This document shows positions 17,368-23,761 of a stretch of DNA of 32,000 bases, one piece after another. Source of the stretch: Erysipelotrichaceae bacterium (GTDB taxonomy: Bacteria > Bacillota_I > Bacilli_A > Erysipelotrichales > Coprobacillaceae). Within the stretch, counting starts at the first letter, position 1; every line of letters starts with the position of its first letter. The notes beneath the pieces were generated by a model. It saw only the letters and a program-made list of their open reading frames with translations, was not told where the DNA came from and made no database searches. Location: the NCBI GenBank assembly GCA_028698185.1, contig JAQVDW010000008.1:1-32000 (forward strand), given 5' to 3'. The position numbers and the translations under genes are program-made.

Positions 17368-18000
17368 TTATTTTTTGTTTTTGGGCTGGGGATCGGTCAA
17401 ATCCGCAATTGCTCCATTGGCGATTGCTGCAAGATACAGGGCGGCCACTTGACCATGGGGCTGGTATCTCTTTGAGTAACGATCGAATTTGGCATCGTCG
17501 ATTGCCCGGTGCCGGTAAAGCATCCGCATCCCTTTGAGGATCGTTTCATTTTCCCGTTCGAGGGGCTCGATATTATTTGATGGGGATTTTTTGAATTCTT
17601 CGATGGCTTCAAAGGTCAGACCTGGGATGGCGCAAAGGCTTGCTTCAAGCAACCCTTCATCGGTGCTTGAAAGTTGGGTCAGGTCATACTGGTTGCGGTA
17701 AACGCGGGCGGCGAAGTCTTTGATGCACAGGACTTGAAATTGGGGGATTTTCAAGGCATGCAGCTTCTTTTCCTTGATCTTTGTCAGCGTGTATGGTGTC
17801 AGTTTCTCAAAGCTTTTTTCCAGCTTTTCGAAAAGCTCATGGCCATTGTCCAAAGGTGCCAGGATGCTCTGGATGACCTTGATAAAAGGGTCGCTAGAAT
17901 TTCCGACCGGGATGAAACCGATTTGTTCAATGGCTTCTTTAAATTTTTTGTCTTTTTTTGATAGATAGTCCAGTTCTACTTGAGAGTAAGTAAAATTCAT
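17368..18000 (-). CDS. HhH-GPD superfamily protein (short AlkA-like 3-methyladenine glycosylase family), probably catalytically degenerate
   Basis: 210 aa with an AAGGAGG SD. The N-terminal YLSKKDKKFKEAIEQIG and C-terminal LYRHR...FDRYSKRYQPHGQVAALYL match short AlkA-like proteins as I recall them. The hairpin loop is IPGLT, and there is no Asp in the following 40 residues. Confidence 0.65.
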   Translation of the reverse strand: MNFTYSQVELDYLSKKDKKFKEAIEQIGFIPVGNSSDPFIKVIQSILAPLDNGHELFEKLEKSFEKLTPYTLTKIKEKKLHALKIPQFQVLCIKDFAARVYRNQYDLTQLSSTDEGLLEASLCAIPGLTFEAIEEFKKSPSNNIEPLERENETILKGMRMLYRHRAIDDAKFDRYSKRYQPHGQVAALYLAAIANGAIADLTDPQPKNKK

Positions 18001-18198: not shown

Positions 18199-18759
18199 AT
18201 GTTGGACAATAAAACTATCGTCGTTTATGGCTTAACTAAGCGCGAAATGAACATGGTGGAACGGGCAAGCCAGGATTTCAAGGTCAATGTAGTCAAAATC
18301 AAATACCTCAAAGAAATTTATCATGCGGATTATTTCCTGGCGATTTTGGATGTCAATAATGCCAAAAGTGAGGAACTGGAAAAGTACAGCGATTATCTTG
18401 AAAATGTGGATCCGAATCTGGCGACAAAGGTTATTATTGATATTGACAAAAAAGAGCTTAGCAAGAAAGGGAACTATGCATCGTTCAACAGTTTTCAAGG
18501 GATTGAAAATGAATTGAGCGTCTTGATCAAGAAATCTTTCCAAAAAGCCAAACGCGAGCTGGGTGTAGCCGACAGCATGAACAAGGCTATTGCAGTGTAC
18601 AATTATCTTTCAAACAATTCTGGAAGCATTGAACAGATCCAAAAGACGACCGGGCTAGACAATGCTGAAGTGATCCGTTACCTCGGGATTCTCGAAATTT
18701 TTTGTGATGATATTCAATTTGACAATGAAAATAATAGCTATGGAAAAAAGGAAAGCTGA
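18199..18759 (+). CDS. Hypothetical protein with a C-terminal winged-helix-like segment
   Basis: 186 aa with a GGAGG SD. A TTGTAA-17-TATAAT promoter lies upstream. No family was recognised. The segment SIEQIQKTTGLDNAEVIRYLGILE reads like an HTH. Confidence 0.6.
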   Translation: MLDNKTIVVYGLTKREMNMVERASQDFKVNVVKIKYLKEIYHADYFLAILDVNNAKSEELEKYSDYLENVDPNLATKVIIDIDKKELSKKGNYASFNSFQGIENELSVLIKKSFQKAKRELGVADSMNKAIAVYNYLSNNSGSIEQIQKTTGLDNAEVIRYLGILEIFCDDIQFDNENNSYGKKES

Positions 18760-18845: not shown

Positions 18846-20432
18846 ATGAGTGATTTTATCAATGAAATAAACAGACGCAGGACATTTGCGATCATATCCC
18901 ATCCCGATGCCGGGAAGACGACCTTGACCGAAAAATTCCTGTTATATGGTGGGGCCATTCAGCTGGCCGGTACCGTTAAAGGAAAAAAGAATTCGCGCCA
19001 CGCGACCAGCGACTGGATGGAAATCGAAAAACAAAGAGGGATTTCGGTAACTTCATCCGTGCTGCAATTCGAATATGACGGATATTGCATCAATATCCTG
19101 GATACTCCGGGCCATCAGGATTTCTCGGAGGATACTTACCGGACCCTTATGGCGGCGGATTGCGCGGTCATGGTAATCGATGCCTCAAAAGGGGTCGAGG
19201 AACAGACCCGCAAGCTGTTCAAGGTTTGCACAATGAGAAACATCCCAATCATCACTTTCATTAATAAAATGGACCGTGAAGCTCAAGATCCTTACATGCT
19301 TTTAGAAGAGATAGAACAGGAGTTGGGAATAAAGACCACTCCGGTCAATTGGCCGATTGGATGCGGCAAACAGTTTGCCGGGGTTTACGAAAGGGAAAAA
19401 AAGGAGATCATCCGCTTCCTGGAATACACCGGTGGTAAAAAGGCGGTAAGCAGTGAGACCATCAAAATCGATGATCCGATGCTCAAGGACGCCATTGACC
19501 AGGAGCTTTACGAAAAGCTGCTTGAAGATATCGAACTTCTGGATATCGCCGGCAACGAGTTCGACCTCGAGGCGGTCCACAACGGGAAGCTGTCACCGGT
19601 TTGTTTCGGTTCGGCACTGACCAACTTTGGAATCGAGCCGTTCCTGCGCCATTTCTTGGCCATGACGACTCCGCCACTGCCACGGGTTGCCGAGGGCAGA
19701 CAAGTCAATCCCACCGATGAGGATTTCTCGGCATTTGTATTCAAAATCCAGGCGAATATGAACAAGAATCACCGCGACCGGATGGCCTTTTTTAGGATCT
19801 GCAGCGGCAAATTCACCAAAGGGATGGAGGTCTACCATTTCCAAGGCAAACGCAAAATCAAACTCAATCAGTCGAAATCGCTGATGGCCGACGAGCGTTC
19901 CGAGGTTGACGAGGCCTATGCGGGGGATATAATCGGGATTTTCGATCCGGGAATCTTCTCGATTGGGGATACCATCACCAACGCCAAAAAGCCATTCGCC
20001 TTTGAAGGCATTCCAACCTTCGCGCCGGAACACTTCCGCCTTATCCGCAACAAGGACACGATGAAACGGAAGCAATTTGTAAAAGGCGTGGAACAGATAG
20101 CCAAAGAAGGTGCGATACAGATTTTCACCGAAATGGGCGGGGCCATGGACGAAATCTTCGTCGGCGTGGTCGGAGTTTTGCAGTTCGAGGTTCTCGAACA
20201 CCGCTTGAAAAACGAATATAATGTGGAAATCGTATCGTCAGGATTGCCATACCAGTTCATCCGCTGGATCAACAACGATGCCAACTTGAAAGAGCTCAAC
20301 TTGCCATCGGACTGCCGGGCGGTCCAGGATCTTAGGGGCAACACCCTGTTGCTTTTCACCTCGTCTTGGGGTGTCAACTGGGCAAGAGACAAGAACCCAA
20401 ATCTGACCCTGCGCGATTTTTCGAAAAACTAG
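18846..20432 (+). CDS. prfC: Peptide chain release factor 3
   Basis: 528 aa from ATG 18846, with a GGAGGA SD. The N-terminus RRRTFAIISHPDAGKTTLTEK, the G-domain DTPGHQDF and NKMD are present. The upstream extension of the ORF overlaps the promoter and the SD. Confidence 0.9.
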   Translation: MSDFINEINRRRTFAIISHPDAGKTTLTEKFLLYGGAIQLAGTVKGKKNSRHATSDWMEIEKQRGISVTSSVLQFEYDGYCINILDTPGHQDFSEDTYRTLMAADCAVMVIDASKGVEEQTRKLFKVCTMRNIPIITFINKMDREAQDPYMLLEEIEQELGIKTTPVNWPIGCGKQFAGVYEREKKEIIRFLEYTGGKKAVSSETIKIDDPMLKDAIDQELYEKLLEDIELLDIAGNEFDLEAVHNGKLSPVCFGSALTNFGIEPFLRHFLAMTTPPLPRVAEGRQVNPTDEDFSAFVFKIQANMNKNHRDRMAFFRICSGKFTKGMEVYHFQGKRKIKLNQSKSLMADERSEVDEAYAGDIIGIFDPGIFSIGDTITNAKKPFAFEGIPTFAPEHFRLIRNKDTMKRKQFVKGVEQIAKEGAIQIFTEMGGAMDEIFVGVVGVLQFEVLEHRLKNEYNVEIVSSGLPYQFIRWINNDANLKELNLPSDCRAVQDLRGNTLLLFTSSWGVNWARDKNPNLTLRDFSKN

Positions 20433-20440
20433 TGTCTAAT

Positions 20441-20500
20441 AAGATTCCTCATTTGTGGCAACGCCCTTTAGAAGCGAAGGCCCGGGAGGAATCTTTTCTT
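20441..20500 (+). terminator. Long-loop hairpin after prfC, a possible terminator
   Basis: A 10-bp stem AAGATTCCTC/GAGGAATCTT encloses 35 nt and is followed by TTTCTTGTT. Confidence 0.45.
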
Positions 20501-20534
20501 GTTGCAGTTTTTAATGTGCAAAAATGACAAATTG

Positions 20535-20543
20535 TGATAAAAT
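20535..20543 (+). promoter_or_regulatory. Extended -10-like element upstream of the small ORFs and the ATPase-like gene
   Basis: TGaTAAAAT. The first ATG (20552) lies 9 nt downstream. Confidence 0.35.
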
Positions 20544-20613
20544 ATTCTCTAATGGGGGGTGACGCTTTATCGCACATGTTGGAAAAAGACTTAGCTGCCG
20601 CTGCTTCAAAAAC

Positions 20614-20793
20614 ATGGAGATGAAAATCGGCAAGGAAGAAGAAGTGCTGTTTTTCGAAAGACAAATCTATGATTGTGTTGTTAAAGATGATGGCATCAAT
20701 CCCGTTTACTATAAGGTTTATGGTGAAGAATACGCATTAAGTTGCACCCACAAAGAGTTCAATACGTATTTCGTATTGATCAATAAAAAGTAA
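20614..20793 (+). CDS. Candidate small protein of 59 aa, below the ORF-track cutoff
   Basis: The ORF reads MEMKIGKEEEVLFFERQIYDCVVKDDGINPVYYKVYGEEYALSCTHKEFNTYFVLINKK. It ends 13 nt before the downstream ATPase-like gene and is preceded by a 23-codon uORF whose stop overlaps its second ATG (ATGA). It has no clear SD. Confidence 0.35.
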   Translation: MEMKIGKEEEVLFFERQIYDCVVKDDGINPVYYKVYGEEYALSCTHKEFNTYFVLINKK

Positions 20794-20806
20794 AGGTGGC
20801 ATATTT

Positions 20807-22747
20807 ATGATCAGACATTTTACTATCAAGAACATCAACGACGTCAAAACATTCAATGAGCTCTCGCTCAAGCTCAACAGCCTTGGCGAGGTTGCTCATA
20901 TAAAGGTAAAAGACAATGCCGTCGAGTTCGACAGTATCGACATCATGGGCATTGTCGAAATAGTCGAAGCGATCGACCCTGCTTTGAAAATCCAGGAGAT
21001 CGTCGACGAAGAGGAAATCGACCTGAAAAAGGAGTCGGAACCAAAAGAGTATTTCTTCCTTTTTGAAAACATCTCGAAGGATGAAATGGAACAGGTTCTG
21101 ACCGTGTTGAGCTCCTATTCGAGTTACACCAACGTATCGCTCAACCGACAAAACAAATTGCTCAAGCTCACAACCAACGACCATCATGTTCTGGCCCGAC
21201 TTAAACGGATTGTTGCAAAAATCGGACCGAATATCAGTATCATCAACTATAACCGTCCATTCCAGGGAGAGGATTTTTTCAATCGGACCTTCAGCAGGTA
21301 TTTCATCATGGTTCTTGTCGGGGCCCTGGCGTTCGGGATTGCCGTCGTAACCCGACGCGAGCCGACAATCATCACCAGAATCGCCTGGCTGGTTACCCTG
21401 GCGGTTCTTCTTTCGAGCATGCTCAAGACCGCTTGGATCGACATCAAACGTAAACGTTACTTCACCGAGGACAATCTGATGATCCTTTCTGGATTTTTGG
21501 GCTGGGCCTTTGGGTTCTATTTCGAAATGGTCCTGGTTGTCATCATCTATCTGGCATCCAAGGAATTGTTGATCAACCTGGGGACTTGGATCATCAATGA
21601 TATCGACCGGAAACTCGAGTCGATCGAATATGGCAACCTGCGGACACAGCAGGGTGTTGTCAGAGTTCCTCTTAGCAGCATCGACATTGATGATATTGTG
21701 GTGGTGCACGAAAATGAAGCCATAAATTTCGACAGTGAGCTGGTTGACGCCAAGGCGTTTGTCAACTCTTATGCGGTAGATGGCGATGACAGTGACAAGC
21801 TCATCAATGCCGGGGATCCCATCCGGGCCGGTTGCACCAACCTGCAAGGGACCATCCAGGTCAGGGTCAAGAAAATCTACCAGTCTTCGGCATTGAACCT
21901 GGTCGCATCAAGAGCGACAAGCTACGCCTTGAGCGAATCGAAGATGTTCAAGTTCATGCAGCTGTTCGCCAAGGGATACACCATCACCTTGATCGTCCTG
22001 GCGGCATTGATGATCGTCTTTGGGGGCGGATTCAGGCTGATTGATGAAGCGTATGTATATATTGGAATAATCCTTCTTTCAATCAGCTCCAATGCGACTT
22101 ACGTCCAGGCGATTTCATATTCGTCATTGGGTGTGGTTGGCAACGCTTTGGTTAAAAATATAGTCATCAAGAACACCAACAGCATTTACCGGCTCCATTC
22201 ATGCAATGTGATTATCTATGACCGGATCGATGACCAGCCGGTAAGTCTTGACGAACTCGAGCTGATCGAATATCTCCACTCTTTAAACAAGATCCTGATT
22301 ATCTTCAACGACGGACCTCAGGACCTCATTGCCGGAAAATATCAGGTTCGCAACAACTATACAACCGAAGAAAAACTGCAAGTTATCACTGATTACCAGA
22401 AACACAATGCGGTATGTTATATTGGCGATTCGACCAAGGATATCGTCATGCTCCAAAGTGCCAATGTCGGTATTGCCCGGGGCGGGATCCTTGCCAAGAG
22501 GGTTATCCGCAACAGCGACATCGTGCTGAAAGATTCATCGAAACAGACGATGGAAAACGCCTTTTTAGTGTCCAAACGCTACCGCCATGTGATTTATCAA
22601 TATGGCTTTTTGGGACTGGTCGGGGTCGTGGCCATTTTCATCATGGCTGTCGCCAATATCATCCCTTGGGTGCTCGCGGTGGCTATCGACGTTATCATCA
22701 GCGGCGCTGTAATTTTGATCAATAAAAGGATAGTGAACTTATCATGA
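20807..22747 (+). CDS. Degenerate P1B-type (Cd/Zn/Cu-like) P-type ATPase homolog lacking the catalytic and metal-binding motifs
   Basis: 646 aa with an AAAGGTGG SD. The membrane and actuator core resembles CadA/ZntA-like pumps (YFTEDNLMILSGFLGWAFGFYFE, AGDPIRAGCTNLQGTIQVRV). TGES is replaced by DGDD, CPC by SSN, DKTGT by DRIDD and GDGxND by GDSTKD. The N-domain is missing, and two HMA-like N-terminal modules have no CxxC. Confidence 0.8.
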   Translation: MIRHFTIKNINDVKTFNELSLKLNSLGEVAHIKVKDNAVEFDSIDIMGIVEIVEAIDPALKIQEIVDEEEIDLKKESEPKEYFFLFENISKDEMEQVLTVLSSYSSYTNVSLNRQNKLLKLTTNDHHVLARLKRIVAKIGPNISIINYNRPFQGEDFFNRTFSRYFIMVLVGALAFGIAVVTRREPTIITRIAWLVTLAVLLSSMLKTAWIDIKRKRYFTEDNLMILSGFLGWAFGFYFEMVLVVIIYLASKELLINLGTWIINDIDRKLESIEYGNLRTQQGVVRVPLSSIDIDDIVVVHENEAINFDSELVDAKAFVNSYAVDGDDSDKLINAGDPIRAGCTNLQGTIQVRVKKIYQSSALNLVASRATSYALSESKMFKFMQLFAKGYTITLIVLAALMIVFGGGFRLIDEAYVYIGIILLSISSNATYVQAISYSSLGVVGNALVKNIVIKNTNSIYRLHSCNVIIYDRIDDQPVSLDELELIEYLHSLNKILIIFNDGPQDLIAGKYQVRNNYTTEEKLQVITDYQKHNAVCYIGDSTKDIVMLQSANVGIARGGILAKRVIRNSDIVLKDSSKQTMENAFLVSKRYRHVIYQYGFLGLVGVVAIFIMAVANIIPWVLAVAIDVIISGAVILINKRIVNLS

Positions 22748-23571
22748 GACCATTGATTGTAAAACAGACGACCCAGCTGCAGGATTTCCTGCTCAATTTC
22801 TACAATAAGAAGAATGTAAAAAAATATCTCAAATACAAGCAGGTCCATCTCAACGGCTCGAATGAAGTCCGTTTTGACACGCTTTGCCAGCCCGGGGACC
22901 AGGTCGAAATCAAGGAAGCGGCCAAGACGGGGCTGGACATCATATATGAGGATGAAGAATTGGTGGTGATCGACAAACCGGCCGGCTTGCTGTCAATTGC
23001 CGGAGGCAACGAGAAGGAACAGACTGCCTACCACCAGGTTTCCCTCTACCTCAAGGAAACAAATCCCAAGGCCCGGGTTTTCGTCCTGCATCGGCTCGAC
23101 CGGGACACTTCGGGAATTCTGATGTTCGCGAAAAACGAGAGAATCAAGAAGCTGCTCCAGGATAAATGGAATGATATCGTCACCCATAGGGGTTACTATG
23201 CCCTGTGTGAAGGCAAATTGCCCAAGGAAAAAGACCGGATCGTCAACTATCTCAAGGAGTCCAAGACCCAGCAGGTATACATTGCCAAAGACGGCAAAAA
23301 GGCGATCACCGATTACGAGGTAATGAAAAGTTCGAAGGGCAACACCCTGGCCCGGATATTTTTACAGACCGGCCGGAAGAACCAGATCCGGGTGACGCTC
23401 TCATCGCTCAACTGCCCAATTGTCGGGGACAAGAAGTACGGCAGCGTGACCAACCCGATCAGAAGGCTCGGTCTTCATGCCTACTGTTTTGGCTTTGTTC
23501 ATCCCATAACCATGAAGAAGTATTATTTTGAATCAGCTATTCCTGAAGAGTTCGAACGGGTTTTCAAATAA
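22744..23571 (+). CDS. RluA-family pseudouridine synthase with an N-terminal S4-like module
   Basis: 275 aa. The catalytic motif HRLDRDTSGILMFAK and KNQIRV are present. Its ATG overlaps the upstream stop (ATGA). Confidence 0.85.
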   Translation: MRPLIVKQTTQLQDFLLNFYNKKNVKKYLKYKQVHLNGSNEVRFDTLCQPGDQVEIKEAAKTGLDIIYEDEELVVIDKPAGLLSIAGGNEKEQTAYHQVSLYLKETNPKARVFVLHRLDRDTSGILMFAKNERIKKLLQDKWNDIVTHRGYYALCEGKLPKEKDRIVNYLKESKTQQVYIAKDGKKAITDYEVMKSSKGNTLARIFLQTGRKNQIRVTLSSLNCPIVGDKKYGSVTNPIRRLGLHAYCFGFVHPITMKKYYFESAIPEEFERVFK

Positions 23572-23587
23572 AAAAATGAAAATAGGT

Positions 23588-23616
23588 TTGACAAGTAGCT
23601 AGATAACTGTTATAGT
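23588..23616 (+). promoter_or_regulatory. infC-rpmI-rplT promoter
   Basis: TTGACA (23588-23593), a 17-nt spacer, TATAGT (23611-23616). Confidence 0.7.
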
Positions 23617-23761
23617 ATGACAGTAAATGAAAAGTAGTGGAAAGAAGAAGTGCCTGCTTCTCGCCTGAGTGAACTTATCGCTAGGCCAATGTCACAAAGA
23701 ATTTATTCTTAATGAGATTATAGCGGGTGCAATCTGTACTCGCTTTTTATTTTAAACTACT
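23617..23761 (+). promoter_or_regulatory. Structured 5-prime leader of the infC operon, an L20-leader-type attenuator
   Basis: A leader of about 140 nt lies between the promoter and the infC SD. It ends in an intrinsic terminator (23722-23750). This is the architecture described for L20-mediated autoregulation in Bacillus. Confidence 0.55.
23722..23750 (+). terminator. Attenuator terminator inside the infC leader
   Basis: AGCGGGTGCA-atc-TGTACTCGCT followed by TTTTTATTTT, 12 nt before the infC SD. Confidence 0.7.

Follow-up and report, generated by a model that had tools for sequence, protein, structure and literature searches.

According to a 2023 review, every characterised P-type ATPase possesses an actuator (A-), a phosphorylation (P-) and a nucleotide-binding (N-) domain, the motifs DKTGT and TGES and a proline in the fourth membrane helix (M4); the TGES loop with its catalytic glutamate is stated there for all pumps, and the M4 proline is a helix breaker at the ion site (PMC10654040). 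In the literature searched, which included this review, no conserved lineage of P-type ATPases devoid of the N-domain is described. The gene considered here, X, lies on a stretch of 32,000 nucleotides (the window) from an Erysipelotrichaceae bacterium (GenBank assembly GCA_028698185.1, contig JAQVDW010000008.1, positions 1 to 32,000) and encodes a membrane protein of 646 amino acids (aa) that derives from a P1B-type ATPase and has no N-domain. Its orthologues have no database name on record and no curated family captures them. A first-pass annotation of the window described X as a fossil pump which had kept its scaffold and lost every catalytic and metal-binding motif. The comparisons reported below show that strong selection has kept the pump scaffold in the X family for a task that is not ATP-driven transport.

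The closest described systems are the P1B-2 pumps of the Cd/Zn type (ZntA, 4umv/4umw; CadA, 7qbz; TIGR01512/TIGR01525), with which X shares the topology of the helices MA, MB and M1-M6, the beta fold of the A-domain, the Rossmann core of the P-domain with its Asp, Lys and GDxxxD, and the HMA-fold modules. Unlike these pumps, X lacks the N-domain, the CPC motif and the M4 proline, the M5 lysine, the conserved M6 aspartate, the TGES glutamate, the KTGT residues and the HMA cysteines. The Cu(I) pumps of the P1B-1 type (CopA, 3j08, 7r0g, 3rfu; ATP7B, 7si3, 7xun) provide the best global superposition on the structure model of X, with a template modelling score (TM-score) of ~0.55 to copper pumps in the E1 state in a Foldseek search, but their sequence similarity to X is lower than that of the Cd/Zn type, and the same losses apply. 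A further comparison can be made with the capless (C0) HAD domains and the stand-alone P-domain proteins called 'soluble P-type ATPases' (COG4087). These are HAD cores of the Rossmann type whose active site is open; they have no cap or N-domain, and they carry the Asp nucleophile, the Lys and the acidic motif IV in place. The P-domain of X is likewise uncapped and has the Asp, the Lys and the acidic motif IV; unlike those proteins, its core sits in a full P1B membrane and A-domain scaffold, carries neither an acid nor a Thr at the second position after the Asp, and has the Ser/Thr of motif II replaced.

A P1B scaffold without N-domain and metal sites

As the first-pass annotation had noted, X is an intact open reading frame (ORF) with a good Shine-Dalgarno sequence. 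Its parts are arranged as follows.

20793..20799, forward strand: strong Shine-Dalgarno sequence AAGGTGG, 7 nucleotides (nt) before the ATG of X and in contact with the stop codon of the upstream gene small59
20807..22747, forward strand: X, 646-aa P1B-ATPase-derived membrane protein without N-domain; intact ORF with profile and structure matches
20807..21004, forward strand: HMA-fold module 1, aa 1-66, without CxxC (NINDVKT in its place); hhalign 95.6%, E 1e-8
21038..21256, forward strand: HMA-fold module 2, aa 78-150, without CxxC; hhalign 97.4%, E 1e-11, and fold of the AlphaFold2 model
21269..21625, forward strand: helices MA, MB, M1 and M2, aa ~155-273; alignment, hydropathy and AlphaFold2
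21626..21934, forward strand: A-domain, aa 274-376, with DGDD 325-328 as the TGES loop; PF00122 and motif table
21935..22153, forward strand: helices M3 and M4, aa 377-449, with SNA 428-430 at the CPC position; alignments
22154..22540, forward strand: capless P-domain, aa 450-578, the most conserved region; conservation, lowest nonsynonymous substitution rate (dN) and DSSP
22223..22246, forward strand: short loop, aa 473-480, at the site of the ~120-residue N-domain of canonical pumps; spacing and alignments to hidden Markov models (HMMs)
22541..22744, forward strand: helices M5 and M6, aa 579-646; alignment and hydropathy

X is a homologue of the Cd/Zn-type P1B ATPases, with similarity far beyond chance, and the pump layout proposed at first was recovered by both profile and structure searches. 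In Pfam, the only match is PF00122 (E1-E2_ATPase, a model of the A-domain and membrane part), which lies above the cut-off (residues 281-424, 1e-16); neither the HMA nor the hydrolase model matched. The nearest NCBIfam models are the heavy-metal P1B models TIGR01525 (9e-34) and TIGR01512 (3e-32), to which X scores about one third of the curated cut-offs (117.3 against 346.25 bits and 112.2 against 313.5 bits, respectively), while TIGR01494 is passed with 64.0 bits at a cut-off of 62.3. Annotation pipelines could mislabel X and its orthologues as heavy-metal-translocating ATPases, so that counts of metal-resistance genes would be overstated. The NCBIfam matches fall into two stretches, 222-472 and ~516-625, and skip the middle of the profile; ZntA, CopA and CadA were matched in the same two-piece pattern when sequence and family-profile searches were run against the PDB. 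The profile of the X family matches ZntA (4umv) at 3e-27 in an alignment that begins at residue 153.

The AlphaFold2 model of X, with a predicted local distance difference test (pLDDT) value of 76.9, has eight long helices, an A-domain rich in beta strands and a P-domain of the Rossmann type, and Foldseek places ZntA, ATP7B and CopA next to it at E-values of 1e-22 to 1e-19. The hydrophobic helices are kept, as described before, and number eight, with MA and MB in front of the six core helices, according to hydropathy, the model and the ZntA alignment. The two HMA-like modules seen at first were likewise confirmed: both have the order beta-alpha-beta-beta-alpha-beta (DSSP on the model) and match a profile of 76 true HMA domains over the full length in hhalign. 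The best-scoring canonical relative, P0033, is a pump with two HMA domains and CPC.

The absence of the N-domain, deduced at first from the short distance between two motifs, is corroborated by spacing and by alignment. D472 and G540 are separated by 68 residues in X. In the nearest canonical pumps, a set of 131 that have CPC, DKTGT and GDGxND without exception, the median is 191 (range 174-307). A combined MAFFT alignment of 106 sequences was built from 36 members of the X family and 70 canonical pumps. It contains 97 columns that are conserved to at least 90% in the canonical pumps, and in the X family 12 of these are deleted, 16 retained and 69 changed or variable. The deleted columns are precisely the 12 canonical-invariant columns of the N-domain, including the ATP-site motifs E..S.HP.A and E..G.G, and HMM alignments jump profile or target positions at the loop formed by aa 473-480. 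The whole nucleotide-binding domain, ~120 residues, has been cut out cleanly. This deletion takes away the SEHP and GxG motifs and leaves X unable to bind or hydrolyse ATP in the canonical way, and for this canonical mode the earlier view of X as a pseudo-enzyme incapable of ATP hydrolysis is supported.

The motif replacements listed by the first-pass annotation were reproduced by the alignments, with one change of register. DKTGT aligns to DRIDD 472-476, the family pattern YDRxD lying on FDKTGT of ZntA; the Asp is kept in all members, while the remaining positions have changed (K to R, T to I/F, G to D, T to D/G) and show 0-3% retention each. TGES aligns to DGDD 325-328 in a loop that varies among members, none of which retains the Glu. 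At the CPC position there is no Cys or Pro in either register; the assignment to SSN 427-429 made at first, which the CopA alignment also gives, yields to the better-supported S428-N429-A430 of the ZntA HMM and the MAFFT alignment, and the residues at the M4 site vary among the members. Both cysteines and the proline of CPC, as well as a second conserved M4 proline (column 1049), are each retained in 0% of the family, the M5 Lys is found in 25% and the M6 Asp in 22%, the latter (D628 in X) solely within the clade of X itself. The CxxC columns of the two HMA modules read NINDVKT, which is what GMTCxxC aligns to in module 1, and ENI-SKD, with no Cys at or near them. X cannot coordinate metal canonically: CPC, both M4 prolines and the HMA cysteines are lost, and the M5 Lys and M6 Asp survive in a minority of members. 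A Glu at a canonical-invariant column within the stretch of helices MA, MB, M1 and M2, E240, which we take to be the entry-site Glu of ZntA, is kept in 94% of the family. A shift of register that would restore the canonical motifs was looked for and rejected, as three independent alignments (phmmer and the family profile against the PDB, and the MAFFT alignment) place D472 on the phosphorylated Asp and agree on the losses; only the CPC and TGD registers differ between them, by one residue. With the N-domain, the membrane ion site, the HMA cysteines and the TGES Glu all gone or variable, X, judged by its sequence, cannot be a canonical ATP-driven metal pump and, with no membrane-helix residue conserved, is hardly a specific ion channel either.

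The retained phosphorylation-site core

No part of X is under tighter constraint than the core of its phosphorylation site. Among the 32 positions that are at least 95% conserved in an alignment of the 36 family members, 24 fall within aa 450-578 and none in the membrane helices. The conserved positions of the P-domain include Y471, D472, R473, D475, E483, N501, D502, G503, P504 and K523 in its first part and G540, D541, K544, D545, R558, G559, G560 and D571 in its second. Half of the 16 retained canonical columns (D472, D502, K523, G540, D541, D545, G559 and D571) make up the core of the phosphorylation site, seven of them at 100% and G540 at 97%. To call every catalytic motif lost, as was done at first, is too strong: the motif strings differ, but D472, D502, K523, G540, D541, D545 and D571 are retained at 97-100%.

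At the place of the canonical P-domain site for Mg2+ and phosphate, the Asp of TGD, the conserved Lys and the acids of GDGxND are kept. In GDSTKD 540-545, to which GDGxND aligns, the Gly and Asn of the canonical motif are replaced and both aspartates of motif IV are kept; at TGD, the Asp (D502) is kept in all members while Thr and Gly are replaced, the motif II Thr by F500 or N501 depending on the register. The Lys of motif III, K523, is invariant. D472 ends a strand (E468-472), the residue two positions further on is I or F rather than Asp or Thr, and an invariant Asp (D475) follows three positions after D472. Together with D475, the residues R473, N501, P504, K544 and R558 are invariant in the pocket and specific to this family. 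In the AlphaFold2 model, DSSP puts D472, N501 and G540/D541 at strand ends and K523 at the start of a helix, which is a HAD-like arrangement.

Across 27 orthologues, the core residues are encoded by two to six synonymous codons (four for R473, four for P504, six for R558), and since the codons vary synonymously it must be the amino acids themselves that are maintained. The P-domain also has the lowest dN in X (0.05-0.06, against 0.09-0.19 in the other domains). When the isolated P-domain was searched against the PDB and Pfam, only P-domains of P-type ATPases were significant (in the PDB CopB, 2iye, 4.5e-8), again in two pieces with ~140 target residues skipped; phosphoserine phosphatase reached an E-value of only 0.014. 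With the core as the most constrained element, 24 of the 32 top positions in the P-domain and the lowest dN, the fossil framing of the first-pass annotation is not supported. The pattern of conservation looks like that of a re-tuned pocket rather than a dead one, and in this family the phosphorylation pocket, not the ion path, appears to be the part that matters.

Distribution, selection and the partner gene

X belongs to a protein family that is restricted to one bacterial family. A word-indexed search returned 12 full-length relatives of 629-649 aa and 33-99% identity, all with PF00122 only, and an exhaustive HMMER search of 1.84 billion representatives yielded ~9 clusters of full-length, single-stretch matches (251-1166 bits), followed by a gap and then by canonical pumps with at most 208 bits and two-stretch matches. 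The length of X is constant among members that are 27-99% identical. In a scan of one genome per species, 29 X loci were found, nearly all labelled Coprobacillaceae, Thomasclavelia, Faecalibacillus or Erysipelotrichales, and the gene order prfC - X - rluA-family gene - infC is kept across the loci. The immediate neighbours of X in the window are the following.

20614..20793, forward strand: small59, a 59-aa ORF for a soluble protein with invariant C21 and C44, directly upstream of X
22744..23571, forward strand: gene of an RluA-family pseudouridine synthase (rlu), the conserved downstream neighbour of X

The ATG of rlu overlaps the stop codon of X (ATGA), so the two genes are probably co-transcribed. 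Upstream of X, Rfam detected no riboswitch or leader, its sole match being the L20 leader upstream of infC, and the scan for promoters and terminators gave nothing above background.

The first-pass annotation did not include small59 in its account of the locus. The gene is present at full length in ~27 of the 29 species loci with 46-90% identity, on which ground it is better conserved than X, and gene callers predict it in L030 and L031, the first of these being the closest relative of X. An alignment of 17 sequences has 16 invariant positions, the two cysteines among them, and searches of small59 against Pfam and NCBIfam gave no match. As a protein search was uninformative, with only three close matches, the distribution was settled by a scan of metagenomic DNA seeded on small59 instead: X lies downstream in 64 of the 66 loci with enough sequence, at a distance of at most 100 nt in 56, L041 and L096 (see below) are the two exceptions, and prfC is found upstream of small59 in just 30 of 56 metagenomic loci. 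X and small59 are a two-gene module kept by selection; X is inherited vertically in Coprobacillaceae/Erysipelotrichales as a pair with the 59-aa protein, and the unannotated module is present in common Erysipelotrichales of the human gut such as Thomasclavelia and Faecalibacillus. In Thomasclavelia loci (e.g. L005:5419..5943), a gene for a 174-aa GNAT-like protein with weak RimI-type matches stands between small59 and X.

Between X and L030 there are 56 synonymous and 7 nonsynonymous differences, with an unsaturated synonymous rate (dS) of 0.14 and a dN/dS of 0.033; against L031 and L001 (~85% identity) dN/dS is ~0.05-0.06. For comparison, the flanking pseudouridine synthase gene has values of 0.03-0.08 and prfC of 0.02. 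Purifying selection also acts on each of the HMA-like, A-domain and membrane parts, with a dN/dS of ~0.05-0.08 in the helices. The ORF is intact (645-673 aa) in 26 of the 29 species loci, two others being cut by contig ends and one, L025, being split. The low dN/dS and the intact ORFs across species show that X is not decaying, in agreement with the retention under selection that had been proposed at first. Over 18846..20793, the DNA of prfC and small59 is 100% identical between the window and L030, while dS is 0.14 for X and 0.24 for rlu. This looks like the trace of recombination between two strains that are closely related, with its boundary at roughly the beginning of X.

Three unusual loci deserve mention. 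In L025 (CP139560.1), deposited as a 'complete genome', X is split into four ORFs, prfC and infC are each spread over three frames and rlu over two. Because these neighbours are frameshifted too, the split of X is a sequencing or assembly error and L025 was rejected as a natural pseudogene; the assembly is error-prone and unfit for calling pseudogenes, and it is the only one in which frameshifts or stops were found in an X orthologue. L025 also has a 100-aa ORF between X and rlu. In L041 (5328..7073, reverse strand), a DDE transposase gene (PF01609) sits directly downstream of small59 at the expected place of X, which is missing from this stretch in that strain. The third is P0053 (L033:4533..6308), a 591-aa CadA-like metagenomic singleton. 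It resembles X in being a P1B protein with a collapsed N-domain region and in giving one contiguous alignment with X. It differs in that CxxC and CPC are preserved, that the phosphorylated Asp is replaced by Glu and that it does not represent a conserved lineage. P0053 is 59% identical to a normal CadA, adjoins an ArsR/HTH_5 regulator and has no family around it. As a singleton close to ordinary CadA in a cadC-like context it was rejected as an evolutionary intermediate of the X family and is probably an independent, recent deletion, a one-off accident. P0033 was considered as an intermediate without DKTGT and rejected as well, being a normal pump with DKSGT.

That X might be a decaying pseudogene or an artefact of assembly or annotation could be argued from the split gene in L025, the transposase in L041 and the accidental N-domain loss that P0053 demonstrates for real CadA pumps. 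Against this, dN/dS is 0.03-0.06, 26 of 29 species loci are intact, 64 of 66 metagenomic small59 loci carry X, its length holds from 27 to 99% identity, and prfC and infC are frameshifted alike in L025, so pseudogene decay among the orthologues was rejected and this explanation is effectively refuted.

Possible roles of X and other features of the window

The reading that we favour, to which we give an even chance, is that X, which descends from a P1B ATPase of the CPC type (Cd/Zn-like) with two HMA domains and no longer pumps, is maintained by selection in a switch or docking role based on its pocket. That X would work through the pocket is suggested by the fact that the ancestral phosphorylation pocket is its most constrained element. 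Selection preserves the overall fold and, above all, the capless HAD-type pocket of the P-domain. No longer capped, this pocket may still be a binding site for a divalent cation, a phosphoryl-like ligand or both, or else for a partner protein, for example small59. On a scaffold anchored in the membrane it could serve as a switch or as a place for docking, in which case the role of X would be regulatory or sensory and not one in transport. The family offers a natural experiment on the P-domain pocket and on the coupling of A-domain, P-domain and membrane part without ATP.

Several observations weigh against this reading, and it must be taken with caution. The ligand of the pocket is putative, and the geometry of the pocket is read from strand-end positions in the DSSP string of a predicted model. 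The threonines of DKTGT and TGD, which help to position Mg2+ and phosphate in real pumps, are replaced in X. Internal salt bridges of R473 and K544 with D472 and D475 may be all that keeps the pocket together, with no ligand in it. For the proposed partnership with small59, the structure model of the latter is unusable (pLDDT 46). Moreover, L096 (5178..6899) encodes a 573-aa homologue right after small59 which keeps the HMA, membrane and A-domain parts (hhalign 99.1%) and whose P-domain is cut to ~80 residues without the YDRxD, FNDGP and GDxxKD core, a second reduction step in one lineage. The most divergent member of the family, P0031, also lacks FNDGP and GDxxKD. The pocket is therefore not indispensable in the wider group, and its loss in L096 and P0031 limits the confidence in any mechanism centred on it.

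The main rival is that X is an inert structural pseudo-enzyme, serving as a membrane scaffold or anchor, for instance for small59, in which the charged pocket neutralises itself and merely stabilises the Rossmann fold through internal salt bridges, with neither a ligand nor phosphoryl chemistry. This is a possible explanation, held with less confidence than the pocket-based role, and it accounts well for the persistence of the rest of the protein in L096 where the pocket is lost, for the purifying selection on the HMA-like, A-domain and membrane parts, and for the invariant R473 and K544, which could neutralise the adjacent D472, D475, D541 and D545. It explains poorly why, at ~30% overall identity, the only fully invariant residues should be the ancestral catalytic ones rather than others that stabilise the fold. 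The same invariance feeds a more exciting rival, in which X is a P-type machine independent of ATP: D472 would be charged by acetyl phosphate, carbamoyl phosphate, inorganic phosphate (Pi) or a kinase acting in trans, and once phosphorylated would drive or gate changes in the membrane domain, making X a receiver-like phospho-switch or a transporter with an alternative fuel. The nucleophile Asp, the Lys of motif III, the Asp pair of motif IV and the Asp of TGD are all kept at 100% under synonymous turnover, canonical P-type ATPases can be phosphorylated by Pi and acetyl phosphate, and the hosts are anaerobes of the gut that live by fermentation. Two positions after D472 there is a hydrophobic residue in place of an acid, and from general HAD chemistry this would be expected to make an acyl-phosphate long-lived. 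We nonetheless regard this rival as unlikely, given that the TGES Glu is absent and its loop variable, leaving no conserved machinery for dephosphorylation, that no evident substrate site is left after the loss of the M4 proline and the ion ligands and with no helix residue conserved, that the threonines of both DKTGT and TGD are replaced, and that the L096 lineage manages without the pocket. It is equally doubtful that X should be the first P-type ATPase derivative to work without ATP, as a membrane phospho-switch that acts with small59 and whose capless aspartyl-phosphate pocket is charged by a small donor molecule (acetyl phosphate or Pi, for example) or by a partner protein.

Explanations built on transport or on ATP fare worse. 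A channel was among the roles considered by the first-pass annotation, beside a scaffold and a regulator. A passive channel or uniporter that reuses the old membrane domain of the pump would fit the eight hydrophobic helices kept at a dN/dS of ~0.05-0.08 and the presence of E240 in 94% of members. Its improbability follows from the lack of conservation in the membrane helices, where no position reaches 95%, where the ion ligands (CPC, Lys and Asp) have been lost or vary, and where the helix-unwinding M4 proline is missing from every member. A split ATPase whose N-domain is supplied in trans by a separate protein could find its missing half in the co-inherited small59, but this is highly improbable: small59 has 59 aa against ~120 for an N-domain, contains no motif resembling SEHP or GxG and matches no Pfam or NCBIfam model, no other neighbour of X is co-conserved, and even if ATP were provided, X would still have neither the TGES Glu nor the KTGT residues nor an ion site.

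Apart from X and its partner, some further features of the window were recorded. Downstream of rlu, the infC-rpmI-rplT genes are preceded by an Rfam L20 leader (RF00558, 62.4 bits, 23636..23757, forward strand) and, with it, by a strong promoter-like site at 23588..23616. Upstream of prfC, two ORFs of 210 aa (17368..18000, reverse strand) and 186 aa (18199..18759, forward strand) have no significant Pfam match, the latter showing a marginal match to DUF2582 only (E 0.09), and both are conserved only in the closest relatives L001 and L002. Antisense to the first half of X runs an ORF of 355 aa (20780..21847, reverse strand), for which nothing supports the status of a gene and which is probably a by-product of codon composition.

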